From an uncultured Gammaproteobacteria bacterium (GTDB lineage: Bacteria > Patescibacteriota > Microgenomatia > UBA10105 > UBA927), in contig CAZSTG010000006.1 in the NCBI GenBank assembly GCA_964609895.1, forward strand, positions 423-62,813: a stretch of DNA of 62,391 nt. The letters are read 5' to 3'. The notes under the pieces are model-generated. The model had not been told where the DNA came from. It saw nothing but the letters and a program-made list of their open reading frames with translations, and did not search any database. The stretch's first letter is position 1. Each line of letters starts with the position of its first letter. This document shows, one piece after another, positions 9,893-62,391 of this stretch. The position numbers were made by a program, and so were the translations under genes.

Positions 9893-9921
9893 CACACAAG
9901 TACTAGCAGATTTGGGGGAAA

Positions 9922-20720: not shown

Positions 20721-25853
<5,133 letters not shown>

Positions 25854-27926: not shown

Positions 27927-27930
27927 GATT

Positions 27931-28626: not shown

Positions 28627-28701
28627 AGAGATATTGTACGCAAGAGGTATTCCATGTGCAATAGAAGTCCAAATTATGATTTGTTATAATACAGTATGTT
28701 C

Positions 28702-28774
28702 GGGCCTGTAGCACAGTTGGTAATGCGCCGCATTCGCATTGCGGAGATCACCGGTTCGACTCCGGTCAGGTCCA
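28702..28774 (+). tRNA. tRNA-Ala (anticodon CGC)
   Basis: GGGCCTG/CAGGTCC acceptor with G3:U70, anticodon arm CCGCA-TTCGCAT-TGCGG, T-arm ACCGG-TTCGACT-CCGGT. CCA is not encoded. Confidence 0.9.
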
Positions 28775-28914
28775 CTGTTTGCTTTAGAATCACAATCCTT
28801 TTGTATTTCTTTTGAGATAGAGGAGAGGAACTTCAAGTTCCGTATTTGCCACAATAAAAACAAAAGGGAGTCACCTCATAGGGGAATAGCATCAAAAAGC
28901 GTTCTTTGACACAG

Positions 28915-29127
28915 TTATTGTGCTTCGATAGAAACGCCGGCAACCTGCGGGTTGTCTGCAGCCATTTCCGTATTCAGGAAATTACCGATAATTGCACCGA
29001 TGCCAAGCATAAGGGCAACCATGACCACAAACATCCAGCTTTTGAGCATGAGAAGAAATCCTTTCTTCTCCGTCTTTTTTGCCGGTCGTGCCGCAACTTG
29101 CCTGCGGCGGACGATTTTTTTCTTCAT
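28915..29127 (-). CDS. small single-pass membrane protein (about 70 aa)
   Basis: MKKKIVRRRQVAARPAKKTEKKGFLLMLKSWMFVVMVALMLGIGAIIGNFL... is a basic N-terminus followed by one TM helix. The track ORF extends to 29217, but the upstream part looks non-coding. Confidence 0.45.
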   Translation of the reverse strand: MKKKIVRRRQVAARPAKKTEKKGFLLMLKSWMFVVMVALMLGIGAIIGNFLNTEMAADNPQVAGVSIEAQ

Positions 29128-29211: not shown

Positions 29212-29889
29212 ATGCATAAAACCCTGCCGTCAATTTTTTCGCTTTTCCGTTTTGCGCTGCAGGCGCTTCGTGTGCGACAGTATGCAGTGTGGTTTATTGT
29301 CAGTGGACTGGTATTTACCGTCATTTCCCGACTGCTTGTTGTGTTGCCTCCATTATCATATATTGCCATGCAGGCAACCGGTCAGACGGTATTGTATGGA
29401 ATTCTGCTTGCATGCAGCATGGTATTTATATGGTATGTCATTGTCGTGTCGTTTGCCCTGTTTCTTCTTGTTTCGCGCCGTATTGCACTAGGGCAGCCTC
29501 TTGGGATAAAAGTTTCCTTTCTTGAGGCACATCGGGCTGTCGGCAGAACCACGGGCACCATTTTTCTGTTAGGTTTGTTCGTGCTTGCGGGTTGTATCGC
29601 GCTGATTATTCCCGGATTTATTGTGGGTATTCTCTGTTTTTTTGCTCCGACCATCGCCGTACTTGGGAATAACAAAAAGAAATTGTTTCTGCAAAGCAGA
29701 ATGTTATATAAAGGCAGGTTTTGGGCTGTTTTTCTCCGTTTGGCTATTGTGTATGCTCTCACGCTGATTCCGACGTATGCATTGTCGCGTATTCATCCTG
29801 TCGCCGGTCAGGTATGGGGAATTACGACATCGTTTTTCAGTTTTCTTTTTACCAAAATTTATCTGGATTTGGAACAGACAAAAGCATAG
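29212..29889 (+). CDS. hypothetical polytopic membrane protein
   Basis: About 225 aa with 5-6 hydrophobic helices. ATG at 29212 (the track ORF begins at TTG 29176). It lies immediately upstream of the giant ORF on the same strand. Confidence 0.6.
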   Translation: MHKTLPSIFSLFRFALQALRVRQYAVWFIVSGLVFTVISRLLVVLPPLSYIAMQATGQTVLYGILLACSMVFIWYVIVVSFALFLLVSRRIALGQPLGIKVSFLEAHRAVGRTTGTIFLLGLFVLAGCIALIIPGFIVGILCFFAPTIAVLGNNKKKLFLQSRMLYKGRFWAVFLRLAIVYALTLIPTYALSRIHPVAGQVWGITTSFFSFLFTKIYLDLEQTKA

Positions 29890-30155: not shown

Positions 30156-33100
30156 ATGACCACATACATACGCAATCATTCTGTGCGCCACGGGTTTATT
30201 CAGATCATTCCGATGGTGGTGCTTGCAGTGATTGCCGTGACAACATTTATTACCATTGGGAATTTAGAAAAACAACAAGATATCAGGAGTAGAGCAGCCG
30301 GCGGGACATGCACACAGAAAACATCGGCTGGTTCCTGCAGAAATGTGAAGTGTGCGTCCTATTCAGCAAGAAGCGAATGCGGTGCAAGTTGCTGTACGTG
30401 GGTTGCAGATACCAAGGCGCCGACCAAGACTCCGACAAAGACCCCGACCAAGGCACCGACGAAGACGCCGACCAAGACTCCCACAAAGACCCCGACGAAG
30501 GCGCCGACCAAGACTCCGACAAAGACCCCGACCAAGACTCCCACAAAGACCCCGACGAAGACGCCGACCAGAACGCCAACAATGTCCGCAGCATGTGCAG
30601 GTCTGAACCAGTCCTGTGCGAACAAAAGTTGTTGTTCCCCGAATGCCTGCGCAACATCCCCATATGGAAAATATTGTGTGGCACCCAAAAAAACTCCGGA
30701 TTGCACGAGCGGGCAGACAAAATGCCAGACCGAAGGATCTGTTTCCTATCAGTATACCTGTGATGCCGCTGCGGGAATCTTCGATTACGGTTCAAGAAAA
30801 CGGTGTACCAACGGTTGTAGTGGTACAAAATGCGCTGCGGAGACAACAGTGACCTGTATAGCGGGAAAAGTGCAGTGCAATCCGACACGGGTCAATGAAC
30901 TGCAGACCTGTATTAAACGAAGTGACGGCTCGTATACATGGATGACGACTTCATGCCCGAACGGATGCAAAAATGCTGCGTGTGTGACAACGACAGCAGC
31001 TACGTGTACTGCAAATGAAGATTCTACGCTGACTGCACGCGAATGTACAACTCGGGGAAGAACATATAGGACTTTACCCGACGGGAAAATCTGTTGTATG
31101 AGGGTGCCGACCAAAACACCGACAAAGACCTCGACCAAGACGCCAACAAAAAAACCGACAACAGCACAAAAATCTACAGGAGCTGTCAGTCCGAAACCAA
31201 CTGTCACGTCAAAAACAACAACGCCCGTACAATCAAACGGATCACTCGCTATCGGAGACACCTGTGTGACAGGATTTTTGGGCATAGGAAACACGTGTAA
31301 AAAATGTCCAAACGGCGTGTATCATGTTGTCGGAAGGTCAGGAGCGGGAGGGACACTTGTCTGCGGACCCGCTCCGACAGTAACCGGTACACCAAAAACC
31401 AGTCCGACGAAAAGCACTACAGCAAACGTGTCGTCTTCAACGACACCTTCTCCATTTATTGGGATCGGAGCAGGTGTTCCTGTCCTTCTTCCAACAGGAA
31501 CAGAATTCGGTTTTGGTGTGAATGTCGGTGCTCCAAAAACCTGTTCGCTTTTCAAGCCATGCGGGAAAGATGCAAGCGGCACAAAACTACATTGTGAAAA
31601 AGGTATATGTATTGTGCCGACGGCATCTCCGACAAAAGCACCGAACACAGCACCGACTCCGGCGTCGTCGAAAGCTTTATCTGTCGGTGACACCTGTACG
31701 AAAGGATTTTTAGGGATAGGGAATACCTGTAAAAATTGTCCAAACGGCACATATTACGTTTCCCAACGTTCTGGATCAGGGGGAACGCTCAAATGCGGTT
31801 CTGTTTCCACAACTCCTGTTATTTCGTCCACCGTGGCACCAACACGATCTTCGGTTACTCCAAGTCCGACTATTCTTATTGATCAGCCGACATACAGAAC
31901 ATGTGTAGCGGAATGCAATACCACATATAAGACGGAGAATACTTCTGAAGAAAAGACAGCGTGTATAGACAGCTGTAAAACACTGCAGTCTACAGCGGAT
32001 GCATCAGGAGCATCCGGTGCATCCGGCAGTACAGGAGCATCCGGTGCCACAGGACCAAAACCGTCCATTACTCCCATTCCCATTCCAACGCCGCCCAACT
32101 TTACCGGCGGAAATTTGATGTGCAGTGCGGGAGGCGGTACCACCGCAAAAGCAGGATCGTTTACTTTTGATGCGGGAGCAATTTATAAATGCGACGGCAC
32201 AACGGGAAAATGGTTTAATGTGAGTAAAATCGGCTGGGGACCGGAAGATATTCCGGAAGAAGAACGGCCGGCATGGCTTGTTCCGGGAAGTGCTGAATGG
32301 AATTCTTATACGACGATTGCGGTGACAGCGCCATCCATATATACAACAGAAGCAAAAAATTCCTGCTCCGTCAACACGACAGACGGAACAATTGCCTACA
32401 AAGACGGTTCCGTTGCCATCGGCCCGTATCATTCAGGAAGTACGACAAAAAACAGGTATCGCTGCGAGGATGGGAGATGGAATGAGTGCGAAACATGTCT
32501 TCTGACGGTAGAACCTGTGTATATGGCGAGTGATCCGGAATATATCAAAGAAAAAGAGGAACACGCAGCCACCGTTTCTGATGCCTATACCGCGTATGCT
32601 ACCGCATTGGCTGCGTGTACGTCGGCTGATGTGGCAACATGCGAGGCGGAAGCGCGGGCAAAAATCCAGTCATACGGCGCAGAATACATTCAAGAGGTAC
32701 AACAGCAGTATGTGCAGCAGGCGCAGATTCAAAACGTCTACTATCCCGCAATAGAAGCATATGCAACGTGTCTTGCAACATCCGGAAACACCACGGATAC
32801 CTGTGCGGCAGAACGGAGGGCTGCAAACGTAACCTATACGACCATAGGACTGGGCGGTGAATATTATTCCCAAGTGAATGCGAGCTTCGGGAGTGCTGTC
32901 TATAATTCATTTTTGAATGAGTATATCAACATGAATTCTCGCGCGGATACTTGTGCGGAAAACAATAACGCGGTGGATTTTGGCGACGGAACGACGTGCG
33001 AAGATAATACCAAAGCACTGGCGGCACTGAAAAATGATCCGCTGTTTCTTTATGTTGAGGCACAGTCCAACTCATGGTGTCAACAACCGCCGCAGAAATA

Positions 33101-60100: not shown

Positions 60101-62391
60101 ACAATTGGTCGATAACGAGGGTGAAAAACTGGATACGCCGGATGAACTCAGGCATGCGCTGTCAACATCCCGTAATGACGGAACATTTATCATCTATCTG
60201 AACACCCAGACCGGCCAAATCAACATAATCAACTCCACCCGTCAGGCTGTCATGGCTGACGGATCTTTGTATAACACGCTACTGCAGCGCGACAAGGAAC
60301 ATCCGATGCAGGGCGCGCAGATTGCTCTTGAGGAAATGTTCGGCACCACTATCGATGAACCAATGGTGACAGACCGGTATTTCCTGAAAACTCTGGTTGA
60401 CCAGCTATTTCCGGAAGGCATATCCGTCACTGTCTCCCATGACATGATTCGGCAGGACAACGGGGATGTTGTGTTTACCAAGGGGACACATGTTATGAAC
60501 GGGAATCAGCTCATGGATTACGTCACCGTTAGGAAAATCAATGGAGAGAGCGAGTTCAATCGACAGATCCGTGGCGCGCAAGTGATCGGGATGGTGCTGC
60601 AAGAAATGACAAAACAGGATTTGGGGACACTGATGACTACCGTTGCCCAAATTATGGAAGCCAGTGCGACAGACGGCGGACAATTTATCACCATGAATGA
60701 CTTATGCGGGGTGAACGGAACAGAAAACACCATAGAGACCATGTCTCACCGATTTCAGTTCCTGCAGGATGCGAGTGTATTTACCGACATGGAACGGTTC
60801 GAGAATCAGTTCGCGTTGAATTACAATTTTCTGCATCCGGATATGATCGTACTTGAGCCAAGCGATGCGATTAAAAACTGGCAGCTTTTGTCGTATGCCG
60901 GCGGTCTGTTTGATGTATCCATCACGCCGATGGGTGTCTACACATCCGCAACGCAAGTTCCGAATTATACCGGTCCGCATGCGGAGAATTTTTATGTTGT
61001 GACACAGAATTCCATAGAGGAAACCCAAAGTATCGGATTCAGTACATTGCCGGATCGTGCGGTTTCGTATTTTGAAAATATCCGCGCAATTGCAAATAAC
61101 CTAGTTGCCGACAGCGTCAAGACAATCAACACTTCAACCATTCCGGTTCCCATTACCAATAGTGCGGCTCAGTCGAATGCTCCTGCGGTGACGGAAACGC
61201 CCGCGGCGGTTGCTCAAGCTCAAGTATCGTCAGGAGATATCTTTATGCAGCCGGTAGTATATGTTATGAATGTAGCAACTCCATATCCCGGTGTTGCACA
61301 AAGCAGTGTTGTGCCGGACGGTCGGATATTTACTCAACCTGATGAATGGTTGCCTGTTGCGGAAGAGGATTTGCCGTCTTCAGGACTACTGCGGTCACCT
61401 GATGCCTATCTGGACACCATTGCTTGGTTTCATGTTGAAACATCCACCCGATATGCCATTACTGCAGATGGAATGACAAACTGCAATATTTACGTTTGGG
61501 ACATAACCAGAGCCATGGGTGTGGAATTGCCGAGATATTATAATGGTGACAAAACACGTGCTTCTTGGCTATTTAACTGGTTAACCGGTGAAGGCGCACA
61601 ACAGTTTGGTTGGACTGCAGGTTCCGGTCAGGATGTCGGATGGAGGGAAATAAGCGCTGAAGATGCACAAAATGAGGCAAACAAAGGCAATCCGACTATC
61701 GCCATCATGGGGCCGGAAGGATATATCGGGCATGTTGCTATGGTTATTCCCGGCACGCTGACCACTGTTGATGGGGTGCAATATCCGACCATTTCTCAAG
61801 CGGGACGGGTCAATTTTACCGGTCAGAGCGCATACGAAGGATTTAAAAATCTCATTCAATCAACCAATCAGCCTATCCGTTATTTCGTCAATGATGGAAG
61901 ATATATATTGACAGATTCTGATCAGGCGGCTGTCCCTGCGTCCAATGACGCAGCCCAACAGCAGGCGAATCAATCAACATCCAACTATACATTTAATGAA
62001 GATAAATCAGAAACATCGTTTTTGGCCTCAAATACCATGCAGGATCGGCTTTTCTGGGTAAGAAGTTCATTTGCCAAGATGTTCGACGCTGCTTCGTCAC
62101 TGCCATTATCACCCGTAGAACAGCAGGCGGAAAAAATAATTACACCTCTGGCAAAGACAATTGCAGACAGTGAAAACGACCAGTGTATTTTTGGTTCTCT
62201 TCTTATTCATCCAGTATTTGCACAAGGGGTAGGGAAGCCGTGCAGTGGAGCAACAAAGATAGTCAAAAAGATAAGCGGGCTGACAGTGAAGGCGACCGGA
62301 CGAACAGCAAGTGATGCAATGAAACTCACAGCCTACATGCCACATCGGATGATTTTTAACCAAATACGCGCATCTGATCAGGTAAATACGT
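30156..62391 (+). CDS. giant multi-domain envelope/effector protein, 5' end present, 3' end beyond the window (at least 10,745 codons)
   Basis: - Reading codons from ATG 30156 (position mod 3 = 0), I found no TAA/TAG/TGA up to the window end. That is 32,236 nt, or 10,745 codons plus 1 nt.
- The ORF track has no + strand entry in this frame anywhere in 30-62 kb. It lists only short ORFs in the other five frames, as expected if an unterminated ORF was not reported.
- Every motif I located (31251, 38217, 44163, 50670, 51081, 54561, 54891, 61482, 61731) lies in this same frame.
- There is an in-frame stop at 30066. An alternative ATG lies at 30087. Confidence 0.9.
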   Translation, partial: MTTYIRNHSVRHGFIQIIPMVVLAVIAVTTFITIGNLEKQQDIRSRAAGGTCTQKTSAGSCRNVKCASYSARSECGASCCTWVADTKAPTKTPTKTPTKAPTKTPTKTPTKTPTKAPTKTPTKTPTKTPTKTPTKTPTRTPTMSAACAGLNQSCANKSCCSPNACATSPYGKYCVAPKKTPDCTSGQTKCQTEGSVSYQYTCDAAAGIFDYGSRKRCTNGCSGTKCAAETTVTCIAGKVQCNPTRVNELQTCIKRSDGSYTWMTTSCPNGCKNAACVTTTAATCTANEDSTLTARECTTRGRTYRTLPDGKICCMRVPTKTPTKTSTKTPTKKPTTAQKSTGAVSPKPTVTSKTTTPVQSNGSLAIGDTCVTGFLGIGNTCKKCPNGVYHVVGRSGAGGTLVCGPAPTVTGTPKTSPTKSTTANVSSSTTPSPFIGIGAGVPVLLPTGTEFGFGVNVGAPKTCSLFKPCGKDASGTKLHCEKGICIVPTASPTKAPNTAPTPASSKALSVGDTCTKGFLGIGNTCKNCPNGTYYVSQRSGSGGTLKCGSVSTTPVISSTVAPTRSSVTPSPTILIDQPTYRTCVAECNTTYKTENTSEEKTACIDSCKTLQSTADASGASGASGSTGASGATGPKPSITPIPIPTPPNFTGGNLMCSAGGGTTAKAGSFTFDAGAIYKCDGTTGKWFNVSKIGWGPEDIPEEERPAWLVPGSAEWNSYTTIAVTAPSIYTTEAKNSCSVNTTDGTIAYKDGSVAIGPYHSGSTTKNRYRCEDGRWNECETCLLTVEPVYMASDPEYIKEKEEHAATVSDAYTAYATALAACTSADVATCEAEARAKIQSYGAEYIQEVQQQYVQQAQIQNVYYPAIEAYATCLATSGNTTDTCAAERRAANVTYTTIGLGGEYYSQVNASFGSAVYNSFLNEYINMNSRADTCAENNNAVDFGDGTTCEDNTKALAALKNDPLFLYVEAQSNSWCQQPPQKYTDISCMSQAKTLANAPALANILGTVATESIATVYSEYAITSDAYNASDTELISRCETTGIGAQYTTLYGERVKNCTASAVRQALLTNVELPAGLEEQIVYGYKQNLLSQYTQATSYGDLEAASNLCEQFSTEEDCADYDKALTIIASNFKTTFSTEEQAAIGNVQQALTDAKTYAYLTDPTKCPEGSTDALCIKIVENKNKVVDSLPQSLQDQWLYQQITTLSDTDLQSFCQQSHSYYQCISPLSAVKTLSTDLSTTEMKTAVAADRASYQEMNATFTLVTTGLDSSLQTDCYERYTSESDRQTHCDPDKYREELKASLPDAIQEQAEAAFEANSDMLTEIEAQIAVVPKVRCDTQKKCETGYKCTQGFCEPKKGTIVPTPTPLSSAEQQLVIEDIAKKQTYCSNIGGESSTAQYDRSTGFCVILREGNPVPEVYDLDGRTPAASTFTGAGFTPSCNTAETYDVATNRCYLKKPLNVVIPDAQERNELKRYVNRIATCRDYALAMQYDDPATSASYDHDKKELAECQEEMTTYSLVINGVATPQQVSIKPALDDLYGDNTDLLQQNSMIQLIRDNYAEKADEYITDDYEVNIEALKKDGVYDTITKDAGLLLYHQVKNANDRWLYEKLSPDEAAHNLSYVHEMYGDDIDDTVNPVLSLTIKDGAVVSTEPVTAASGPVLTMGDGGGAGENLWPYISKMIDEVSDPDNEVYKYNLVYGSGSNSINSAFALSGNAIDFSIPYSEWKELQPSNEDLFDIAKESANEYTEKVETDWWYRNAVVVQNAVSMGAGFVTGVVFAPTGPGAYAASVAVQVGVDVVSQAVVDATTESVSERFAEKVKEASTEPNTTVTQEIATEVAENEKVANVKEWRDYLVQDLVFNVVGEGVGRLVTNKATMKLLTDSVLVSVSKDTVNTAQEAAEFFAKDLSQGGAQKILGVAADGSIREFTSLSSMELADDIVKWVPVTKQLETDAGVILKDALKQSDFLAGASQKKMIENLAKNPEVDASVFNQLKEVRSIAQNGDKSAVKMWADAAAAKKALNQPFTGVTTTAIADLDAAARAIKPDDTLILKSGEQLNLAKATNQTDYVQIVRKNGDAADVVFAGSAEEFGQKLAAGEITINPGDMVRKSQAPFLVTSGTLPVDDFTNLVNAKAFSEIDALQTKTTISKFVKLPDGNRIPVAANGVLESLTQEQRQMTKGAFVDLVTDGKVERVMLGANGEIKKLPALSKAFSRSTKGLALIKGIDIDTGKFQVGRWINEQILSETPLYNTLFEQASRHADVKNLLDTIIADKGPRQVKILDASGKELKTLLINDFDKTSADYLDAEVLSLFEKNNNVRIEIATIGTPKVPSTTLGVYVRKAADAPLVQSISLGERFAHMTEQINIARAIRSHGEQVTAGLPLTVPKTGTTTLWYNNASVSLPKDGSVRIFDAQGTILYAKDIQPGQAIPGAYLQEGNFVQISGSKLSATTKTTGVETAFRDMAEEIGTGGVRVKYADASWADVVNKTVNTVLVPGASTPRNFDQLAEHVRSLKGESAENVQEVLNKVQTTSGKIEYNGRFDTLQKKFIYDSIDPSQPVTPEVLAKLQQAGQVRITDASGNTRLFIADGGGSLAFHERILPKTETIKELVTDAKGNPVLDAAGQQVTREKYRLAVPDGKPELKEQIDAFNGLLDRFEAAYHGVDGGFYHVRKEQLELLMSPESILQLGAGSGKTTIIGPMIGAIDRKTVFALPSSSDATDFVNSIAKKTMREFYDKEGIVPVFYDNQRGFLEISENFDRTTAKKIDNATLQRLVTLADDDSATHGLMVITESSDNAWGYIRGRDGTGDLASTLLYKMNLGTSYTGGKGYTLVSDEIGAVINGQFSVTSGDPVAIKDLIDQTALMGLQDGKQILKISNEVQGGASLATFRKQVLDRIEQVRAQGCLAAGCDMSTIVEDLFYSYTKTSKNGVVYRLPIPKDEKMLLSSYEEIIGQALNNPDIPADAPIRLKFKDLQTRFGAGTEGYDVLQQELDALLRTGANQIDGSFDVNKALLADLAYRKNDLEARWFILSQVPGNSYGQEGAEIVLRRMGGTTGEQYSAISQQIALQTEGPALLTAAGLPINRTALKSVENITITPKSSQVSTVDIIRKAQKSIGYDATPDTAARKLGMLATGASERPPDPTKFYRSATQDDLIYQAAQAEKTAGTFNTKAHALVNIDDGVTFNTATNGYIKAYENVNVVARTKFVTDPNGGVRSEYFIEQIVRSEGGKFERIQTPLASLEDWNREVKQALEGGNPQNLLIVYEGRARAVDLKVLPESKNIKWSVMANDTNTMEDITQAFKRNRVPAQKADLINNKGWNPVDVDAASEYTLLVRSNNTNLSQTNIIDHYKTVLDDMIGKTSVESRLTKIAEFQTNALEIAKKELLRNANDTEKKTITANLDALIQDAERVKQFQIQSISRIPLEGPTIGLEVWKRGQESYASLEKTLQQLTDTYKLEPAQVATLKNAFGLSDAGYISLDEFAAMWANPIKTVGEAPVGPLAEVKYFATTTTPDTMPTAFFNGSSDPSVVKTANAAPPASANTPASATRYPVTPAEKITTALAIAKKPAVTALTKTEQFELLSGYMLVKNATKALGEATRVLAQVQQQQNLLIQHIQTPKRLTAGVDMVAGLDQAGVMQRIPIAQGTVVRWTDSSGVATSKTVNQFIQTDAAVGAVTVETNGVAVTISPEEFAQLQTGAGDISPLAIQKEITAAEQAVTNAQQQIDLVAGDTTVIETAATQVVKTVLKEALGGVEPTEAVVTEALAYAGAVSLGDERGKSAFTQTVQTFINRHNGQSAQKITVAADNVVTAMTDSYHAEFVAAATQGPAKKAKTAKEQWDAFIKLLEPKRLDTATRAKLTTRLTGYAKKALGAAIPPLGVIEQLRTSKAYTDALQALWKASGKDWQAYAKKLQSVLPELAAAENDEAAVIALLQAAGSAATPLNTGSGTPAQNAAPVGQQAQPAGTTSTDTVAPQLTEVADRFSRVTAGKTLDVTTDAGKNAAQAIIDYETAAKNAYTNATPAEKEAIKDIATLEAIPAVAAARNAAYTALLTYKTSSGVLFDTLTVFDALIRPTIQTLLRTAAPAPNTTNANNTGTVVPATQPTQSTQPTNRWKNFVSAEKRVADAIYTFVNKIPVIRSMANVLPVVSQEKLAGKKLLGSLLSQSWQTAKYMISRALFPPFLVYDAIRIQHFITAHPDQLGKVALASIPVVIGVIASLLIAGLTLGVPILAAFTPFIGMFYQPFFFALGISIGFNLVTFPLFFNVFFGLTNFIPKIFKQPTMQTIIAQQDALSNAAERKNASTVLSVLRAARDEAKSAYIAALNNTHTTSVERNDLKATYEQAEHAFRTGMAKESIPVVISTIDAVTASVDVTRSQDYLDLQSVLISMKSIAQSSQSQEDTLADAGWLQEMITAIQRVRNEYGVLGKNMLTGNLYNYFISLETLVDELMKDMYGIKVDRGLTVRLEKGETVTFDSGTMQVVSNLNAATTSNSVVVQVVHPLTFTATIDRSSDSESWKETFTLNPAGVIVKNSTGTIVEENLHIDTQLPDTDIDDTQPILEVINTMPDVISRDILNNPQYEQVMKDVIQYAKAHPEQELWSLIYKAFYSKGEVSTETGYFYAGLSVEELQKLHTYNRNIVGNVPLVRGWRIEDFFGGIRTVESDPNQGPSHVGRLYLNTNYEYTARVYRAFQDKLVLAGIPVTIKMIDVLSDSAVQIDLKKAERPDKMVLYFAAKDQETVLRILDEVYQESAAYNKDIQLVLPTMRHNRAFHVGVPKLAANLYTPTAELMDGISFVQNRASVSSYGMMISDVLEVMSNEGIDITNPAVVQQNIPAYLSRYHRDSKYPFVTTEGATRFAPLMQRTTEKSVRVVRRPKAKDDAAKAFAQQAAAAEQAFAEVLQSVRGGNAFLLPEALQNASEEVWKTLLLGRAVNALIGDTITALQETNNLVWLKAVSKTLHPVSAMMKSFSETNAILDAMKTRIRYLKAEEAAAAATVVTPVADVIRTNAKTVDRPAGDPYPKITVIPESYEPVVSVKLGNVIYHLSSVHAFSDQYDFAIGYVELDGVVYARPFLRSASQGVWRSYSHEGDDNSWFGKGFNEQMLMLPLEIQNTLNALFLQETTKTGDEQAMFYGLLERGPSRAAPAMTAGDAAYQYSKEHAAPKQFPGRFTRWKANVYLDRKVAAPNSTEEEFSHIVELSWDQETPPTMQDIANAPELAWLGGIGNFKYGSSTNLDTESLLYPNPTSWTWNDSVEGKAKQPDVTTLTDKGNIDAKCAGTGCSANVYTMLSHDKTIQYIVFENSKTGEVWFGGWEDLTQPITSFGLRKQGYVNTWYGMPLSEYFKQIPWEYHADKQPDALQGTQYRSAAAFVSKLPDVVAVTDAIHAAKEAAGKTGTSLSVQPMSAIKQQKDAASKQALADLQQALKVKNASQAISVMQKVPVSILKLAKDEVAPVLQKVLNTKSDTQFKKFYTALVTGTHPLLNTFDKITTLQTVVKQLRDRMEQLNQAEIDAQTKPETPVEAYKNTPKYAEDKTLGEEVITTYLAYIRLNNATAPKDLDVMYSKITALNLHDDPYSQEVIDQAKAVVDNYRFVVEEERHCEEIRGITEKDGKFSAEVKQRINKKVQEYAAWYQVQMKKSASDRMLGDFGEKLKRFAHQGVFIWTRQQLQNSIDAIRADGITIDDLPAAQKTAKAGFASLQSYLTYLQSTFTANQLQSSEVLVAQLSKIIQTAVQFDQVFAAAKIVSAVPDLVKSIQQVQDDAKQADAARKEVQERGASIDDFTAKFKGEKNNETTRIVVVVQDAQGKEIYRGIVDHVSPSGKELPAFIAAVKTAMHEVTDGVVTVHLTGKDGKTYGMAGTMAPYDRIVGLTWFADSTEIQQTLSPQELDALQEVDAWLEQVIAQEDQQTKDAVEAELFADALARWEARQQQKEQERQVFARQQANQQKLLPAGDYASLEIPNIDTNADSIAQQTEVQTEIEKWEAKKTLMEQGNTLGEKIHGVLEAFGNRQEWRILADNTADRQAWNTLREATDAVVAALTSLQQEANNAKLDDLSTFISESIAKLRAFSDQSTHESEQQEAINTGVGVVARLWMAIDERVAWYAQEAVRAENEVILYRELLKDDAGEKNTADTERRSEFQKLAESAKLKALEAGVAAYTAEQGIKTLQTIQNVIKAYLETSIPIDEVNEQLRNTVIEEQTQKLLPAVLSSIASLQKTNINGIDVAVFQATTLSELVEAERQLTEAKTVVAALNLTSLDELLAIVEDDVETQKAAIEEIRVKKELAAAQEELETALKQLISQGEEGDQTTVLEDVSGVVKSIAPVVSAVTDNAITTITHLVEDGIVETPAVKAKKTKRADAVNKIKTTPVVVATAPSVEQIAAAQTALGALLPLREQINAIANRISNISVTEMQDVFFELTAAIQAADQADMPSEEKQKLFPSFDLIRNEIAAIQDRLTTLEQEQQTILYEMNDADYTLFASSLVSILRQLDVVEAQRQELAITTPSVAPVVPIPQIASPLLTAPDASVKTADEQRAEAQQIADAAAKQQADTAAARANEIAQKVQQIADVERQQAETAARQYQDALTTTRETQETAAARSEEEKDAQAARAQALQEEQNIPAVIQLLPAWSRSTAVAAQKLADTIGTAVAARQQNNTMISDITAGKWTKALQTLLPKLTPATDAYTKAQELLTTIADIQKLQQEAAKKKENVDTLSVTGLPQQLAKSADYLAADQAVRKYGIEEAMRRALLPKTHPDALSINMGGIMQMYGIQTIEEQFQNAIKQIPEADAQYGGPFEIVWDQLSQSPDALQLKLGNGTIIKPLAYGGNRVVFELPNGYIIKIEALRLINGFSMVQQWKSFPTSAEARVSYYRPQYQDDTRVYANNVTNNASEIAFYYSLSEEDRIRYAKPHAFGGTEGQNHFQYVIYKKADFPWKNGNNEGAFDFVNSPDQAVFNQVGQDPFVWLSTVYRQTGAPDIHTGNVGVIDGQPQMLDFLDWSLANWYLFSNVDTAVMDQLRQADSFAFVPESNQSLVLYTKDGVSYLTTLKKDGVIVVNEQPQANPMVLSKTDNPEIFVAPGVRYFYTQGAFVRAKQTGYFFKDLTEHDYVYKNSDSIVLSDGEIVRVFMDRFGQVQELSLQEGDPAAIWRLSNWKIPLADGRYLLRISSFEYIFDPTMNTIARVPLTDTAQEFLVKNGKERIIFSDGFRGVVDATPMPVSSTLGGNVYKVLDNQENTTYVFISDDAQHVEHLYTGIQYVAGTEKNKTILTVQNNELVIVQPYNTKEGMVLETGPQYWVLYSLDKVALFTSLFSSSPIYSPALFHLTNGEALVITDQKAVQGTLTYESDKLYIIKTETDTLQFIADAIWYTVNGKQFQDGEIITVHPGDFIENRRDASNPIGYVQADGTVAKTTPSAAETESTNNTEPAGVASPNESMPETLRQPLDIQQTIAVVQAVVNEYKTAHKAIPDLIAARKINELGIILAKLHPAGEVATSIGDLITTIQSMQEQTKRIGGIIAKVDEGLQYTSITDPTHPVTIPSGQFLIVPVGKTQKILYNNFGSLTEPEFYIGDEGVLFWSGYEYKFVAQDKMQLNAPFEATALSTLSTILHLTGKRNSVLLPINNGYVTDKATMTYEDIVRNIQLYKISDGELWIDGEGIQVLHNTTMQAIHGLTLVEADDLVSIIGSLDSGVIQQDGTIVWKTSSKPTSPTSSQAPQSSSETNQSVTPAVTDVVVTEVTLTTVDVRRGEIFKQVAPLTTITQAQADTWVTELQNLQKSVPETNILYTRLQEVIDFIGKKPIAVEQKKEPVVEVQQETPEQQLDKAVANLKEVVDNGGSFMNTIRAINNTFDAALHVTDPQGIGDRVFAIIQGLSKDSLEFLQHSLQGRYLELNVPKMIDRIKELLSQPASEPSPVTTEEQRLSVVDVVSSHIKTVPAVVRTADIQDWIPVYTTLSSILDGVKQYSKNFDVYHLDQFDLHANTVGKEKTPQNQTVFFEKNKEQLLQLLKEQGITRPEVGKPIDGITQEEFDTVFFPAFAESVYQVLQPAWMNWSLRAVQKETIAHPENYIVSGNPYAYISNLLKSRYAWEQPPRNQINNVVIFTIEQGIWPASDTIGQSLETEPLKERIRKNVEEDGYTLLRYLGDGTDGYVYLMKKGSLLYALKVFKKNAGAQYESSVYKRLVEAEKSGVLGNADETYLTELRADTANNYAIMPFVPSDADGLKDFFTVGEIVKISHLSYLYAQENLLWMDTKNENYRFGPADDLHIIDYGGFKSFSEATQQDKDAERGSWLTFVEKSIRQDIPESDRQVYDALWKQALSMGTDASVLSKAEFADSLTSPIFSKLPKVVQVLLLRQAGLLNAPFEWFSRDGYKDRLLDMLTIAKEQGVPQSQIPTALQGQYTEDLSKRLPSDDVITQAVKNFTTSLPSITDLRQKQAVLAPVFTAVMYALNVETESGRGLYFALQHKQPMLQPIVLTDYSEASMQDIVQKTTPYSYLGRETDPAKREAFFYVIQSLVQQLAAIYPLPNGKNDLTQDIGYIPWISHLLLISDGLQPKYFGIDGTRITTDDINKISLQTDTSIVTMNAVIQAMNPSITAWVTKILSQFAKPSYSEIEQVVQPLVDEIIAAKGWKIPADRRLLYGVAVEQVMINLAQSYNIQVPLSPAPDDKKLAAQQYVETVQKKYAADIAVELYPKTDEKTLIKEQQAVFIQLQNVIGATEDITPVAQEILRLMDKKLYDPSYNSVSRGGFITALFKQINKIQDIDRLRVIIAALQPIVTEWSDLPEVRNALQRLPDITIPPQAPKELVIDQIVASMKQSNVSNEPVVENQPVVQEVKMPVATVEEVVEKPLKTTLAETITLMMAKRLPAVWKTLSQTKQQEIVSELQQIAYAAIADAVNQSYVRDMIAGSRSKAFVTNRFSAVFEDYLQQALVETGTMTGEIPISLRTDLATLVIDEITPMVSATVTIQKPVTQKTTQPKTETSSKNDTFKQTIVARVREQIGNTLAASIVDRNEASRVYALLDALQAEGGETGAYVKKYKSTLATQIIRELLRTLTVDPEAVLTFNGTVYQKQSKGALSVSNIVWQLDPEQKTIVTIHHTDGVIDQVSMKPNAISQKTLLAYMRPLDSAVFTTASGEKIVITLTRQGGKTMDGALETPALWQQYSTSSTYTSIVSGATDDVSVNRVSAMAIEVGDDAASLVGPVVKTVANAAQNLIQKTPQTFIADIRAMLPQDIPYVVRKGIADMLQQEIAEQKITTYADAMSHVAAGTLSPSSEAILGNLGSLSSNAKEWHDALRLVIANMPESAWDPNITVVMRKTMTAILAGKLTDAKEIHELLTREETAERTVRMATLIQAIFRSYASGVNGVTLSATMAKQAVNALTQPLLSYIRPLIQTNVLDVTDMQALTAFMESHQITSATSPEMIMAMREAQVTAGGVTPFEYPAPVLRQQDVHTMLTDGMNSDIQARLEQVLAAYHQSYDGWDSIQTQKAELHDTMLHAVLQAAFTHYDQIYEKNALVELNPKKINNYLAIFAVLQPLFEDEFASMMNGMQQVGTAVVQVQGEHPEITGRDNLLDVLQQQSVFKTQYTLFSPKDMTYIAELYIDDAFVQAPITTQEAENMVQRLKNDGTLQDDIHWALENQLKQAAQAEKTAESLLLADGLVQQTVRAAILSTLQESLSDTGVGGVFHPTTKNYQTIQSVADQETTKAMQELRDLLQGNDNQYTGLVGTLAEAVRQGEEETHAYVSWNQVKEFLDKQNVLNQQTSYFSSKSLLYFAQILFEPSTLQADLATTITTKPQELPKKLQKLFHTISAQDVVRQEANKNVKTVLKFAGALSALLVGFVVTHIPLVLSFIGAVSVAFQQPSSSVPQTPSAVMEQYNPTQTDTQTATQTETQPPSTTATKENNPMYQAYQQAASVQDFLFRPLFERIVNERAARAAEEGDSFWFRITGKHEAELTKAEKDAVIQNPVISMVLFVSDGQLVDNEGEKLDTPDELRHALSTSRNDGTFIIYLNTQTGQINIINSTRQAVMADGSLYNTLLQRDKEHPMQGAQIALEEMFGTTIDEPMVTDRYFLKTLVDQLFPEGISVTVSHDMIRQDNGDVVFTKGTHVMNGNQLMDYVTVRKINGESEFNRQIRGAQVIGMVLQEMTKQDLGTLMTTVAQIMEASATDGGQFITMNDLCGVNGTENTIETMSHRFQFLQDASVFTDMERFENQFALNYNFLHPDMIVLEPSDAIKNWQLLSYAGGLFDVSITPMGVYTSATQVPNYTGPHAENFYVVTQNSIEETQSIGFSTLPDRAVSYFENIRAIANNLVADSVKTINTSTIPVPITNSAAQSNAPAVTETPAAVAQAQVSSGDIFMQPVVYVMNVATPYPGVAQSSVVPDGRIFTQPDEWLPVAEEDLPSSGLLRSPDAYLDTIAWFHVETSTRYAITADGMTNCNIYVWDITRAMGVELPRYYNGDKTRASWLFNWLTGEGAQQFGWTAGSGQDVGWREISAEDAQNEANKGNPTIAIMGPEGYIGHVAMVIPGTLTTVDGVQYPTISQAGRVNFTGQSAYEGFKNLIQSTNQPIRYFVNDGRYILTDSDQAAVPASNDAAQQQANQSTSNYTFNEDKSETSFLASNTMQDRLFWVRSSFAKMFDAASSLPLSPVEQQAEKIITPLAKTIADSENDQCIFGSLLIHPVFAQGVGKPCSGATKIVKKISGLTVKATGRTASDAMKLTAYMPHRMIFNQIRASDQVNT
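30411..30581 (+). repeat. tandem 12-nt (T-K-x-P) coding repeat, 14 units, Thr/Pro/Lys linker in the giant protein
   Basis: TKAPTKTPTKTPTKAPTKTPTKTPTKTPTKAPTKTPTKTPTKTPTKTPTKTPTRTPT. A shorter copy (VPTKTPTKTSTKTPTKKPTT) lies at about 31094-31153. Confidence 0.9.
31254..31799 (+). repeat. duplicated Cys-rich module (2 copies of about 38 aa, 432 nt apart) in the giant protein
   Basis: GDTCVTGFLGIGNTCKKCPNGVYHVVGRSGAGGTLVCG (31254-31367) versus GDTCTKGFLGIGNTCKNCPNGTYYVSQRSGSGGTLKCG (31686-31799). The copies are also clearly similar at the DNA level. A second pair of about 40-aa modules ending C.NGC...(A/K)C lies at about 30710-30975. Confidence 0.85.
38217..38660 (+). other. P-loop NTPase-like module (Walker A plus DE-type Walker B) in the giant protein
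   Basis: LQLGAGSGKTTIIGPMIGA (Walker A codons 38217-38240). About 140 aa downstream is GYTLVSDEIGAV, a hydrophobic strand followed by D-E (38655-38660). This matches SF2-helicase/SecA-DEAD-type motifs I and II. A possible arginine-finger region LLIVYEGRARAVD lies near 39930. Confidence 0.5.
42765..42985 (+). other. internal cluster of 2-4 predicted transmembrane helices in the giant protein
   Basis: VALASIPVVIGVIASLLIAGLTLGVPILAAFTPFIGMFYQPFFFALGISIGFNLVTFPLFFNVFFGLTNFI is about 70 nearly uncharged residues, inside an otherwise hydrophilic protein. Confidence 0.7.
44090..44620 (+). other. HopA1-effector-family-like segment in the giant protein
   Basis: HVGRLYLNTNYEYTARVYRAFQDKLVLAGIPVTIKMIDVL...KKAERPDKMVLYFAAKDQETVLRILDEV follows the G-R-x-Y/T-[IL]-N ... 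K ... R/x-x-D-x-x-[VI]-L-Y pattern I associate with HopA1-family proteins. This is recalled from memory, not searched. Confidence 0.35.
50598..51185 (+). other. protein-kinase-like domain 1 (APH/ABC1/RIO-style catalytic loop) in the giant protein
   Basis: LGNGTIIKPLAYGGNRVVFELPNGYIIKIE gives a Gly-rich strand plus a Lys (codon 50685). ...GAPDIHTGNVGVIDGQPQMLDFLDW gives a D-x-H-x-x-N catalytic loop (D 51090, N 51105) and a DF(G)-like metal-binding Asp (51141). Confidence 0.55.
54561..54990 (+). other. protein-kinase-like domain 2 (Hanks-type motif order) in the giant protein
   Basis: YLGDGTDGYVYLMKKGSLLYALKVFKK gives a GxGxxGxV loop (54582-54611) and the VAIK-type Lys (54645). ...LLWMDTKNENYRF gives D-x-K-x-x-N (D 54906, N 54921). 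...LHIIDYGGF gives D-[FY]-G (54960-54968). Confidence 0.6.
59650..59745 (+). other. second transmembrane segment(s) in the giant protein
   Basis: LKFAGALSALLVGFVVTHIPLVLSFIGAVSVAF forms one long or two short hydrophobic helices, followed by a Q/T/P-rich linker. Confidence 0.6.
60070..60700 (+). other. LCP (LytR-CpsA-Psr)-like domain in the giant protein
   Basis: The motif order matches LCP: SMVLFVSDG, TFIIYLNTQTGQINIINSTRQ, ALEEMFGTTIDEPMVTDRYFLKTLVDQL..GISVTV, VVFTKGTHVMNGNQLMDYVTVRKINGESEFNRQIRGAQVIGMVLQEM (compare f.kG...L.G.qAL.YvR.R....gDf.R..RQ..v). The canonical PRD arginine appears to be substituted (STRQ). Confidence 0.5.
61400..61860 (+). other. papain-fold Cys/His amidase/peptidase-like module (CHAP / NlpC-P60-like) in the giant protein
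   Basis: ADGMTNCNIYVWDITRAMG holds the candidate nucleophile Cys (codon 61482). ...NKGNPTIAIMGPEGYIGHVAMVIPG holds the candidate His (codon 61731). ...ISQAG follows. The spacing and the hydrophobic context match cell-wall amidase folds. Confidence 0.5.

Follow-up and report, generated by a model that had tools for sequence, protein, structure and literature searches.

A single Gottesmanbacteria gene of at least 10,745 codons that may encode a membrane-spanning envelope and host-contact protein

This analysis asks whether the final 32 kb of the window (the whole stretch of 62,391 nucleotides) hold one gene and, if so, what its product might do. Retranslation with table 11 from the ATG at 30156 gave 10,745 codons with no stop, as an earlier note on this DNA had claimed; the nearest in-frame stop on the 5' side lies at position 30066 and the remaining five frames of the window hold 592-968 stops apiece. 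The ORF runs past the window end and was therefore omitted from the ORF list. The source contig (62,813 bp) and the window finish at about the same point, and the 3' end of the gene is missing because the contig stops inside it, rather than through an effect of the window. We scored codon usage as log-odds, with the upstream housekeeping genes as the training set, in 21 consecutive 1.5-kb tiles, and in every tile frame 0 was positive and both shifted frames were negative, so the stretch is native coding sequence throughout. The same region is overlapped by just 13 further ORFs (151-239 aa), all but one on the minus strand; the minus-strand ORFs are best seen as shadows, as the note had suggested. 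The GC1/GC2/GC3 values of the giant ORF are near those of the host genes, at 0.54/0.39/0.43, the exception being the first 1,000-1,500 codons, which are compositionally biased. Self-BLAST of the protein returned two internal similarities only (aa 327-437 with 489-575 and, weakly, 5630-5775 with 7366-7523), and TRF found only short Thr-Pro-Thr-Lys linker repeats (30411-30582 and 31107-31159), which makes a collapsed-repeat artefact unlikely. The order of conserved blocks is the same in proteins assembled independently from other samples (P0132, L019, L020 and L014), which speaks against chimeric assembly, for aa 1-4870 and 8857-10312 at the least. These data confirm that the terminal 32 kb are occupied by one real gene, whose product measures at least 10,745 aa (Table 1); some 70% of this protein holds no recognisable domain.

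Table 1. Positions in the window of the giant gene, its recognisable parts and its two small upstream neighbours.
Feature	Window position	Residues of giant protein	Strand	Basis or remark
70-aa single-span membrane protein	28915..29127		-	divergently oriented, conserved beside giant gene
225-aa multi-span membrane protein (weak UPF0259)	29212..29889		+	directly upstream, same strand
Giant ORF, at least 10,745 codons, 3' end missing	30156..62390		+	no stops, coding-like codon usage, contig end
Signal anchor, prepilin-like shape	30156..30269	1-38	+	short basic leader, Gly13, hydrophobic anchor
QQDIRSRA motif just after anchor	30273..30296	40-47	+	read from sequences
Cys/Thr/Pro-rich ectodomain	30297..34685	48-1510	+	composition, Cys positions, TRF
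Conserved hydrophobic Gly/Ala-rich segment, candidate second membrane span	35430..35531	1759-1792	+	hydropathy
Conserved P-loop NTPase-like module	37953..40055	2600-3300	+	motifs, alignments
Cluster of 3-4 hydrophobic spans	42750..42980	4199-4275	+	Kyte-Doolittle up to 2.62
Conserved block with HopA1-family (PF17914) match	43797..44759	4548-4868	+	Pfam, match at aa 4660-4754
Ala/Gln/Glu-rich, Pro/Gly-poor tract	47766..50186	5871-6677	+	composition scan
Hanks-type Ser/Thr kinase-like catalytic core	54552..55028	8133-8291	+	PDB phmmer, motifs
Two blocks conserved with 7,512-aa P0132	56724..59501	8857-9782	+	BLASTP
Membrane span right before LCP module	59634..59747	9827-9864	+	Kyte-Doolittle 2.19
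LCP (LytR-CpsA-Psr) domain block	59922..61091	9923-10312	+	Pfam match at aa 10006-10152
NlpC/P60-type peptidoglycan amidase domain, Tse1/Tae1-like fold	61248..61940	10365-10595	+	AF2, Foldseek
C-terminal tail, cut by contig end	61941..62390	10596-10745	+	weak match to L013 2763-2846

The gene belongs to a tiny-genome member of Candidatus Gottesmanbacteria (CPR/Patescibacteria). For the neighbouring M23 protein, the closest homologues that carry a name come from Gottesmanbacteria, and the gene order DUF2298, Rho, collagen-like gene, LysM-M23, 70-aa membrane protein, giant gene recurs on at least nine related contigs. Giant genes occupy this locus in L004-L006, L010/L020, L011/L012, L014, L016 and L017; the complete ones among the syntenic relatives encode 5,270, 5,900 and 9,234 aa, and several others are broken by contig ends. 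The earlier note must be amended in one respect: the giant does not stand alone, given that syntenic homologues of 5.3-9.5 thousand aa occur in related Gottesmanbacteria and Microgenomates and that giant, poorly conserved ORFs have already been described in ultra-small symbionts. True homologues include JAZDOQ010000019.1 (5,900 aa) and JGI Ga0236239_1000054 (9,234 aa) at the same locus, as well as P0132 (7,512 aa) and P0282 (7,908 aa; OGV90455.1) from Microgenomates/Gottesmanbacteria, which share collinear blocks with the window copy at 25-43% identity. The blocks in common are the Cys-rich region, the P-loop module, the HopA1-like block and the LCP and Tae1-like domains. All of these public entries are hypothetical proteins, none characterised or named, and each has a C-terminal module set and order of its own. 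The window copy is the longest found and the only one among the giants examined to unite kinase core, LCP and Tae1-like domains.

A conserved core is followed by a variable tail. The N-terminal ~3,840 aa, P-loop module included, are collinear with relatives at 37-42% identity, and it is the C-terminal half that varies between them. The giant protein is 37-42% identical to those of L010, L014 and L019, and its similarity to those of L004-L006 is detectable over the first 85-150 aa only, whereas identity to the closer relatives is 63-94% for Rho, M23 and DUF2298. The giant has therefore diverged far more than the genes that flank it and appears to be fast-evolving. Modules also turn over: the Tae1-like domain of L019 lies at aa 5619, an Amidase_2-like insert has been swapped into L013 despite ~80% nucleotide identity, and the C-termini of P0132 and P0184/P0282 are formed by another, Cys-rich domain with a HEFFH motif. 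An FHA domain is present in the 5,270-aa syntenic relative; FHA domains bind phospho-Thr, which fits internal phospho-signalling.

Our preferred reading, to which we give a probability of about 0.5, is that this single Gottesmanbacteria gene encodes a membrane-spanning megaprotein with its ends outward and a cytoplasmic body, which would serve as an envelope and host-contact machine. Hydropathy, composition and Cys positions agree on the signal anchor, Cys/Thr/Pro-rich region and internal transmembrane clusters that the earlier note had described. Class III signal peptides have a basic leader ending in Gly, a hydrophobic residue at +1, Glu at +5 and a hydrophobic helix of ~20 aa; of these type IV pilin features, the N-terminus has a conserved basic leader, Gly13-Phe14 junction and hydrophobic stretch (after Gly13, FIQIIPMVVLAVIAVTTFITIG; Kyte-Doolittle 2.51) and no Glu at +5, and NCBIfam pilin_ComGC matched it at E 0.043 only. 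The anchor is kept in L004, L007, L010, L012 and L017. The motif that follows it may be a processing site, and the pattern QQ[DE][IVM]RS[RKNQ]A is present in the syntenic relatives, P0159 having a looser version only. Beyond lie the Thr-Pro-Thr-Lys linkers and most of the cysteines (77 of the 87 in the giant protein fall within aa 48-1510), and from ~aa 572 the ectodomain is 37-39% identical to L010/L020, L014 and L019. The candidate second span is moderately hydrophobic (Kyte-Doolittle 1.62) with an uncharged stretch of 28 aa and many invariant positions in a three-way alignment, the internal cluster includes an uncharged stretch of 39 aa, and P0132 has a matching pre-LCP span arrangement (aa 5871-5893). 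By hydropathy alone there are four such sites and perhaps 6-7 spans overall.

On this preferred reading, the N-terminal anchor would export the fast-evolving Cys-rich ectodomain (aa 48 to ~1758), which could bind or recognise the surface of a partner, and the second hydrophobic segment would bring the chain back into the cytoplasm. A cytoplasmic body of ~8,000 aa would then contain the P-loop NTPase, the span cluster as a hairpin, the HopA1 block, the helical tracts and the kinase core, before the last span exports the LCP phosphotransferase domain and the Tse1/Tae1-like peptidoglycan amidase. LCP and peptidoglycan-amidase domains require an extracytoplasmic site, and kinase and NTPase modules require ATP; the hydrophobic segments give odd, even and odd numbers of crossings, so that, judged by hydropathy alone, each module would lie in the compartment it requires. 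We also take the Cys distribution as support for this topology, with the cysteines concentrated at the N-terminal end of the window copy and P0132 being Cys-rich at both ends and near Cys-free between. If this is the case, then the giant may tie an episymbiont to its host or to a neighbouring cell and remodel or cut peptidoglycan where the two touch, and this action may be governed by its own ATP-dependent and phospho-signalling modules. We infer that a cell-surface or host-interaction role, as proposed before, is plausible.

Within the presumed cytoplasmic body, the P-loop NTPase of the earlier note is supported by its motifs, with Walker A GAGSGKTT (aa 2688-2695; 38217-38240) and Walker B (D2834-E2835) invariant in four aligned homologues and EGRARAVD following later. 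This region is ~42% identical to L019 and L020 over roughly 1,500 aa and homologous to P0282 aa 1542-2097; the window copy matched no known family in Pfam or PDB sequence searches, and the P0132 module gave weak ResIII/DEAD matches (E 0.002-0.02, below cut-offs). The HopA1-like segment noted previously does reach the Pfam cut-off, though marginally (23.3-26.7 bits against 22.7, E 6e-6 to 6.5e-5) and over part of the profile (positions 13-98 of 170). The block that contains it is 43% identical to P0132 and 39.5% to L020, had no PDB sequence match, and its AF2 model, built from a two-sequence alignment, reached a pLDDT of 39.6. HopA1-family proteins of RiPP pathways are pSer/pThr lyases (PMC9486802). 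Several coiled-coil tracts had been proposed, and composition supports one tract of ~800 aa that is rich in helix formers, poor in Pro and Gly and probably made up of long helices. Similarly, one of two proposed kinase-like domains stands, with complete Hanks motifs: GDGTDG (8144-8149), YALK (K8164), MDTKNEN (D8251, K8253 and N8256) and DYG (8269-8271), the catalytic loop reading W-M-D instead of H-R-D. These motifs aligned in phmmer searches of the PDB with AKT1 (E 7.7e-4) and YabT (E 3.5e-3), and the matches to Pfam Pkinase PF00069 (15.2 bits against a cut-off of 31.7, E 0.015, profile positions 1-153 of 263) and NCBIfam PrkT (E 3.5e-4) fell below their cut-offs; a second kinase was not found. 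The two blocks shared with P0132 that follow are 27.6% identical over 558 aa (E 3e-43) and 28.8% over 163 aa.

The C-terminal modules point to the cell wall. The LCP-like domain, also recognised before, matches PF03816 over nearly its full length (E 2.1e-13, 51.2 bits against a cut-off of 24.6, profile positions 1-149 of 150); its block is 37% identical to P0132 and resembles MsrR (E 1e-6) and TagT (E 3e-4) in the PDB. As in TagT/U/V and MsrR, a single span precedes the domain, here ending ~60 aa before the LCP block, which would place it on the extracytoplasmic side, but canonical LCP proteins stand alone at ~300-400 aa, whereas here the module forms the C-terminal portion of a chain at least 10,745 aa long. 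LCP phosphotransferases ligate glycopolymers to peptidoglycan. The amidase domain has homologues in 427 representative proteins at E<1e-10 and no Pfam family; an alignment of 54 sequences has invariant C, N, D and H residues, including Cys10443 and His10526. Its small homologues have no Pfam match either, and the domain is thus an uncurated branch of the NlpC/P60-CHAP superfamily. In other proteins it adjoins Amidase_2 and, by motif reading, GH108- and SLT-like lysozyme domains. The earlier CHAP/NlpC-like assignment is weak by sequence, with Pfam CHAP PF05257 at 12.7-15.3 bits (cut-off 26; E 0.03-0.18), and gains its support from the AF2 model (pLDDT 83.5, pTM 0.81), for which the best 17 Foldseek matches were all Tse1/Tae1 (E 2e-5, probability 1.0, TM-score on target 0.60-0.71). 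In the model, residue 104 (Cys10443) opens helix 104-114 and residue 187 (His10526) opens strand 187-191, a predicted arrangement of Cys at a helix N-terminus and His on a strand that is shared with Pseudomonas aeruginosa Tse1/Tae1 (PDB 4FGD, 4EOB and 7TVH), whose NlpC/P60 papain-like fold is the best structural match. Unlike Tse1/Tae1, to which it is only 18-22% identical, the domain spans ~230 rather than ~150 aa and is fused into a membrane protein rather than carried as T6SS cargo; neither T6SS genes nor an immunity gene were found in the window.

LCP and NlpC/P60 proteins are also ordinary enzymes of a cell's own wall, so these domains do not require host attack. The giant could instead be a self-directed envelope-biogenesis scaffold for growth and division of its own wall, without direct host action, in which LCP would add glycopolymers to the wall, the amidase would trim peptidoglycan of the bacterium itself and the kinase would be of the wall-sensing type. 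Both enzyme classes are classic housekeeping wall enzymes, the PDB matches to TagT and MsrR are in line with this, and the locus is syntenic on the chromosome throughout the clade among housekeeping neighbours (Rho, LysM-M23 peptidase, PMT-type glycosyltransferases and DUF2298). Housekeeping wall machinery is usually well conserved, however, whereas the giant diverges far faster than its neighbours, gains and loses C-terminal modules among relatives of 5,270 to at least 10,745 aa, and has as its nearest solved amidase fold an interbacterial toxin, so that we consider a scaffold of this kind rather unlikely. The same toxin fold, the conserved N-terminal core with its variable C-terminal part, the swap in L013 and the differing HEFFH-motif ends of P0132 and P0184/P0282 would suit a polymorphic-toxin-like delivery protein, in which an N-terminal presentation core carries swappable C-terminal effectors against competitors (the Tae1-like amidase and, in relatives, Amidase_2 and metalloprotease-like ends), and which predicts a cognate immunity gene directly downstream. 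This we regard as improbable, as the variable part runs to thousands of residues with cytoplasm-type kinase and NTPase modules, unlike Rhs, CdiA and MafB, and no Rhs/YD, haemagglutinin repeats, PT-VENN or LXG were detected in the protein with Pfam and NCBIfam. We consider it very improbable that the region was mis-assembled, is chimeric, or is non-coding or decayed sequence free of stops by chance: the contig does end within the gene, and several relatives' contigs likewise break within theirs, but with out-of-frame stops at ~3-5% per codon chance cannot produce 10,745 open codons in a row, each tile has coding-like codon usage, repeats are nearly absent, and the block order recurs in independent assemblies, including the complete 5,900- and 9,234-aa genes.

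The preferred envelope and host-contact reading can be set against known giant and surface proteins. West-Roberts et al. (bioRxiv 10.1101/2023.11.21.568195) define 'large' ORFs as those of at least 30,000 bp or at least 10,000 aa, and at 10,745 codons, still open at the contig end, the giant ORF falls within this class. Giant, poorly conserved ORFs have been described in ultra-small symbionts, namely in Omnitrophota (10.1101/2023.11.21.568195; PMC10066038), with smaller ones in CPR, and such transmembrane-rich ORFs have been suggested to mediate attachment and the breakdown of cell walls (10.1101/2023.11.21.568195; PMC10066038; PMC8080830). Like the Omnitrophota giants ('Archaeovorin'- and dockerin-type; Seymour et al. 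2023, PMC10066038), ours comes from an ultra-small bacterium with a reduced genome, has a gene of >30 kb with few annotated domains and poor conservation, combines several candidate transmembrane regions with cell-wall-acting enzyme domains (LCP and the Tse1/Tae1-like amidase fold), and is proposed to attach to, or break down, the envelope of a partner. Its internal divergent P-loop module sits where the Omnitrophota giants carry divergent SecA_DEAD domains; a SecA_DEAD HMM had no match in the protein. Unlike them, it belongs to another phylum, is three to eight times shorter than their 30,000-85,804 aa, has perhaps 6-7 spans by hydropathy compared with 42 transmembrane regions reported for V. 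archaeovorus, and carries kinase, HopA1, LCP and Tae1-like domains; no glycoside hydrolase, dockerin or discoidin domains were found in the protein, nor type II secretion genes in the window.

Closer in lineage are the surface proteins of Vampirococcus lugosii (PMC8080830) and Absconditicoccaceae (PMC13059738), which are likewise from CPR bacteria with tiny genomes, membrane-anchored, among the longest genes and proposed to act in host recognition and attachment. These CPR episymbiont proteins have 1,392-4,163 aa and adhesion repeats (fibronectin, integrin, PKD and DUF11), whereas the giant, with at least 10,745 aa, has almost no repeats and combines enzyme-like modules with a body that is large and presumably cytoplasmic. 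It far exceeds the proteins found described for the CPR group, and we see it as a new variant among the giant proteins of ultra-small symbionts. As in LanK/LanY and LanKC/LanL (PMC9486802), a protein-kinase-fold domain and a HopA1-family block, the latter here a marginal match, occur in one polypeptide, but in the giant ~3,400 residues separate them, and the window holds no genes for a precursor peptide, cyclase or RiPP pathway. A bolder proposal, which we hold at long odds, is that these proteins are two-ended transmembrane machines, each a single polypeptide, peculiar to Gottesmanbacteria/Microgenomates, with a hypervariable Cys-rich receptor end and a wall-cutting and ligating end (LCP and the Tae1-like amidase), in which the cytoplasmic NTPase/kinase/lyase body of ~8,000 aa would couple contact with the host to breaching of the envelope; within it, the kinase-lyase pair might form a protein Ser/Thr dehydration system acting on the giant itself or on its partners. 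Were this true, CPR bacteria would have a contact-dependent host-interaction apparatus of a new kind, and the giants would be the largest protein class reported for the CPR radiation.

Two other classes of very large protein were considered and rejected. A repetitive giant adhesin (Ebh, Bap or RTX/LapA-type) does not fit two internal similarities and short TPTK linkers only; adhesin repeat families are absent from the protein by Pfam, as are long tandem-domain arrays by self-BLAST and TRF. An NRPS/PKS megasynthase does not fit either, with no condensation, adenylation, KS, AT or carrier domains in any tile (Pfam, NCBIfam).

Finally, the two small membrane proteins upstream had been suggested to belong to one unit with the giant, of which the co-location is borne out, in all relatives examined for the 70-aa protein and in some only for the 225-aa protein. 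The latter is found in L001, L010 (51% identity) and L014/L015 and is absent from L004-L006, L012, L016 and L017 by locus comparison. The 70-aa protein keeps its synteny in every relative examined at 43-86% identity (81-86% in L004, L006, L007 and L010, and 43% in L012), and was called at the same site in L014 and L017.

Retranslation in table 11 from the ATG at 30156 gave 10,745 codons without a single stop, running to 62390 on the forward strand, as the earlier note had claimed of a single unterminated ORF. The closest in-frame stop 5' of this ATG lies at position 30066, and each of the other five frames of the window holds between 592 and 968 stops. The ORF listing of the region contains 13 ORFs of 151-239 aa, all but one of them on the minus strand; the giant frame is missing from it because it runs off the window end. 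When codon log-odds were scored using nine upstream housekeeping genes as the training set, frame 0 was positive and both shifted frames negative in 21 of 21 consecutive 1.5-kb tiles, and GC1/GC2/GC3 (0.54/0.39/0.43) agree with host genes, with the exception of the first 1,000-1,500 codons, which are compositionally biased. Self-BLAST found a single short internal duplication (aa 327-437 against 489-575) and one weak pair, and Tandem Repeats Finder reported just Thr-Pro-Thr-Lys (TPTK) linker repeats at 30411-30582 and 31107-31159. Codon usage and the near-absence of repeats therefore identify a real, non-repetitive coding frame rather than a chance frame or a collapsed repeat. The absence of repeats in both analyses also rules out a repetitive adhesin; an NRPS/PKS is ruled out as no such domains occur, and an alternative genetic code because the frame lacks stops of any kind and its neighbours are normal in table 11. 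Upstream of the ATG there is no clear Shine-Dalgarno sequence and no significant promoter, and at its other end the frame is truncated, as the source NCBI contig, 62,813 bp in length, stops inside the gene.

The 5' 30 kb of the window encode TrmB, ribosomal protein S1, RadA, a PIN-TRAM protein, an amine oxidase, PMT-type glycosyltransferases, DUF2298, Rho, a 1,696-aa collagen-repeat/Peptidase_S74 protein, a LysM-M23 peptidase (M23) and two tRNA-Ala genes. Among homologues that carry a taxon name, those nearest to the M23 protein belong to Candidatus Gottesmanbacteria or the 'Patescibacteria group', and M23 homologues served as anchors for locating syntenic relatives. The order that recurs begins with DUF2298, Rho, the collagen-like gene and M23; these are followed by a divergent 70-aa membrane protein, in some loci by a 225-aa membrane protein (whose real start is later than in the 237-aa ORF call), and then by a giant plus-strand gene. 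Syntenic homologues of the giant gene thus exist, which softens an initial view of it as unique, and the homologues found are unannotated or 'hypothetical'. Of the related contigs examined, five end within the giant gene and two more reach no further than a few hundred bases into it, suggesting a recurrent assembly break point; with so many contigs ending inside it, MAG annotation systematically misses the gene or records it in truncated form. Such apparently systematic breakage of short-read assemblies at this locus would be consistent with strain heterogeneity. The contigs that stop in the gene or shortly after its start come from many independent assemblies; they are those of the window and of related loci L001, L004, L005, L007, L011, L016 and L017, with L001 and L007 stopping in or just 5' of the TPTK linker repeat.

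Features of the giant protein (window aa, numbered from ATG 30156) and extent of the giant gene in related contigs
Feature	Position or length	Observations
Leader and anchor	aa 1-38	basic leader to Gly13, then FIQIIP and ~20 hydrophobic residues; QQDIRSRA follows
Cys/Thr/Pro-rich region	aa 48-1510	77 of 87 Cys
Gly/Ala-rich segment	aa 1759-1792	moderately hydrophobic; strongly conserved among homologues
P-loop module	aa 2600-3300	Walker A GAGSGKTT 2688-2695; Walker B D2834-E2835; later EGRARAVD
Hydrophobic cluster	aa 4199-4275	3-4 spans
HopA1-containing block	aa 4548-4868	most conserved block; HopA1 (PF17914) match marginal, above threshold
Helix-former-rich tract	aa 5871-6677	Pro/Gly-poor; from composition
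Hanks-type kinase core	aa 8133-8291	Gly-loop, Lys8164, D8251-x-K-x-x-N8256, D8269-Y-G
Membrane span	aa 9827-9864	
LCP domain	aa 9923-10312	PF03816, E 2e-13
Amidase domain	aa 10365-10595	427 representative proteins at E<1e-10; no Pfam model
End of window protein	last 150 aa	no assigned domain
ENA contigs L004 and L005	at least 3,562 aa	cut by contig end
L006		frame open to locus end
NCBI JAZDOQ010000019.1 (L010/L020)	5,900 aa	complete
L011	at least 4,451 aa	
NCBI JBFOMS010000048.1 (L012)	5,270 aa	complete; FHA domain
JGI Ga0236239_1000054 (L014)	9,234 aa	complete; ~270 aa more lost via linker-repeat frameshift
NCBI CAYMYO010000005.1 (L016)	at least 6,255 aa	
JGI L017	at least 5,184 aa	

Flanking proteins of the window are 63-94% identical to those of the closer relatives L004, L006, L007 and L010 (Rho 78-85%, M23 81-94%, DUF2298 63-75%) and 51-65% identical to those of the more distant L012. 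The giant protein itself is 37-42% identical to its counterparts in L010/L020, L014 and L019, collinearly over window aa 572-3595 and 3695-3837, with L020 additionally aligning to aa 4536-4870. In L004-L006 the M23 protein is 87% identical, yet the giant can be aligned to that of the window over its first 85-150 aa only, the remainder being closer in type to L011/L012. Five blocks, at window aa 675-799, 4548-4868, 8857-9391, 9630-9782 and 9837-10312, recur collinearly in P0132, an unlinked homologue of 7,512 aa. A 7,908-aa Microgenomates homologue (P0282, which includes OGV90455.1) has the P-loop module and amidase domain in common with the window protein, and in L019 the amidase domain is located at residue 5619 of the homologue. 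In these alignments the N-terminal ~3,840 aa form a conserved core and the C-terminal extension that follows is modular and variable; the window copy is the longest found. Homologue queries with aa 4401-5900 and 4530-4900 returned no matches, though P0132 and L020 are homologous there, so that these empty results reflect the word prefilter or database content and are not evidence of orphan status; a related-locus search with the last 600 aa found nothing in genome or metagenome contigs. L019 (CAYUUX010000005.1) is labelled 'uncultured Gammaproteobacteria bacterium'; over ~3,300 aa its homologue, which has at least 5,672 aa, shares 39-43% identity with the Gottesmanbacteria giant. Probably either this bin has the wrong label or a CPR contig has contaminated it. 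The groundwater locus L018 (positions 1-21137; contig ERZ1292633.36 Hain-H41, 190,592 bp) is one open frame of more than 7,045 aa across its entire 21 kb, with both ends outside; it has the LCP block alone in common with the window protein and is otherwise an unrelated giant.

Most of the domains proposed from the sequence alone in the earlier note were borne out, namely the anchor, Cys-rich region, P-loop motifs, HopA1, LCP and amidase fold. The N-terminus (30156-30296) has a class III prepilin-like shape which, together with the motif QQ[DE][IVM]RS[RKNQ]A, is conserved in L004, L007, L010, L012 and L017. It has no Glu at +5 and scores only E 0.043 against pilin_ComGC, and could be a lineage-specific sorting or processing signal. 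The P-loop motifs are invariant or nearly so in four homologues. The window copy of this module matched nothing in Pfam, NCBIfam or PDB sequences; searches of PDB with a single sequence and with two- and four-sequence profiles gave no significant match to SecA/DEAD or any other solved structure, nor did the copies from the window, P0132 and P0282 receive a significant Pfam assignment, the P0132 counterpart scoring weakly against ResIII and DEAD. In RiPP pathways, HopA1-family proteins (CaoY/LanY) act together with kinases as phosphoSer/Thr lyases (PMC9486802); a two-sequence AF2 model of the HopA1-like block was unusable (pLDDT 39.6). Two kinase-like domains had been expected. One core with Hanks motifs was recovered, aligning to AKT1 and YabT (E 7.7e-4) with a Pfam score under the cut-off, and the sole addition from NCBIfam was a weak kinase match; the second was not found and is rejected.

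Towards the C-terminus, Cys10443 and His10526 of the amidase domain are invariant, and its AF2 model (pLDDT 83.5, pTM 0.81) has as its top 17 structure matches only Tse1/Tae1 type VI peptidoglycan amidases (probability 1.0, TM-score on target 0.60-0.71). L013, a noisy, error-rich 6.8-kb JGI contig from a relative, aligns to window 59871-61930 at 79.5% nucleotide identity and extends past the window end, with plus-strand coding signal to ~position 5,850 and then a convergent gene. From this the giant gene may, with low confidence, be placed as ending ~0.2-1 thousand aa past the contig end, for a total of ~11,000-11,700 aa. At ~2050-2760 of L013 an Amidase_2-like segment (NAHFGVGRDGTIVQFLP...) is inserted directly after the Tae1-like domain and is lacking in the window copy; at 79.5% nucleotide identity, even close strains therefore differ in modules that have been gained or lost.

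The wall, on which LCP and peptidoglycan-amidase domains act, lies outside the membrane, and the ATP that kinase and P-loop modules require is inside the cell. A topology in which the N-terminal anchor exports the Cys-rich region would be self-consistent with the observed hydrophobic segments: aa 39 to ~1758 would lie outside; aa 1793-4198, including the NTPase, and aa 4276-9826, including the kinase, the helical tracts and the lyase-like block, would lie inside on either side of a hairpin cluster of spans; and the chain from aa 9865 onwards, which carries LCP and amidase, would be outside again. The Cys distribution, dense at the N-terminus and nearly nil over ~8,300 residues in the window protein and rich at both ends in P0132, fits such a topology, as does the FHA domain of the syntenic relative L012. 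An adhesin or receptor end and wall-remodelling or wall-cutting enzymes could then be regulated from within the cell at contact with another cell. The cell-surface or host-interaction role initially proposed is plausible, and we put the probability that the protein acts at an interface with another cell at about 0.5, favouring this role because of the rapid divergence, the modular C-terminal variation, the toxin-type amidase fold and the inferred episymbiotic biology of CPR. The wall-acting domains might instead be turned on the cell's own envelope, as parts of a self-directed wall-biogenesis scaffold; this is a possibility that we hold to be appreciably less probable. Fast divergence at a syntenic locus combined with C-terminal module swapping is a signature that a determinant facing a host or competitor would be expected to leave. 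That signature and the Tse1/Tae1-like fold could also belong to a polymorphic-toxin-like system, which we think unlikely. An artefact is highly improbable, a chance open frame or misassembly being rejected on the strength of the zero stops, codon usage and collinear homologues.

Giant, poorly conserved, TM-bearing ORFs of up to 85,804 aa are known from Omnitrophota, and proteins of at least 10,000 aa are reported mainly from PVC phyla, Actinobacteriota, Myxococcota and Margulisbacteria (bioRxiv 10.1101/2023.11.21.568195). Similar ORFs, 'albeit smaller', have been noted in Patescibacteria (PMC10066038), the cited example reaching 4,163 aa (PMC8080830), and a 2026 study of Absconditicoccaceae discusses proteins above 1,500 aa (PMC13059738). 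In the literature searched, no paper joined Gottesmanbacteria and 'giant'. Giant ORFs in ultra-small symbionts are therefore already known, and the window protein adds a different domain set and a CPR lineage; we do not place it in the Omnitrophota families because it has no demonstrated homology to them, no findable SecA_DEAD match and a domain set that differs from theirs. At more than 32 kb, the gene would occupy ~3% of a genome of ~1 Mb (the size assumed for CPR), a heavy investment. A large share of bacterial diversity is thought to belong to CPR/Patescibacteria, whose presumed way of life is attachment to other cells. If the interface model is right, the link between giant proteins and tiny symbionts would extend from Omnitrophota to CPR and the protein would be a concrete, testable candidate for host specificity. 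It would also define uncurated domain families: the conserved P-loop module, several conserved blocks of no assigned function and the Tae1-like amidase domain, which is widespread (>400 representative clusters) and lacks a Pfam model.

The collagen-like/Peptidase_S74 protein (20721-25811, minus strand, 1,696 aa) has N-terminal HTH_17/MerR domains, a membrane span, ~650 aa of G-x-x triplets and Peptidase_S74 (endosialidase chaperone), a make-up by which it resembles a phage tail fibre; its gene is syntenic and varies in length among relatives (898-1,680 aa), and it may be a second variable surface fibre of the same locus. At 27852-28775, tRNA-Ala GGC (minus strand) and tRNA-Ala CGC (plus strand) lie on either side of a 231-aa ORF (27931-28626, minus strand) that has no Pfam match, forms a singleton cluster and has no counterpart called in the relatives examined. 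The M23-to-giant interval is 2.7 kb in the window against ~0.7-2.8 kb in relatives (1.1 kb in L004-L006), and this ORF may be a homing-endonuclease-like insertion. L007 (4601-5719) and L016 (5597-6712) carry an APH-family phosphotransferase gene inserted after Rho and before the collagen-like gene, L016 having in addition a MazE/Fic pair, all absent from the window. Upstream of S1 in a 472-kb relative contig, beyond the range of the window, are LAGLIDADG endonuclease genes (L002 7197-9197 and L003 223-708), possibly rRNA-intron endonucleases, which are typical of CPR.
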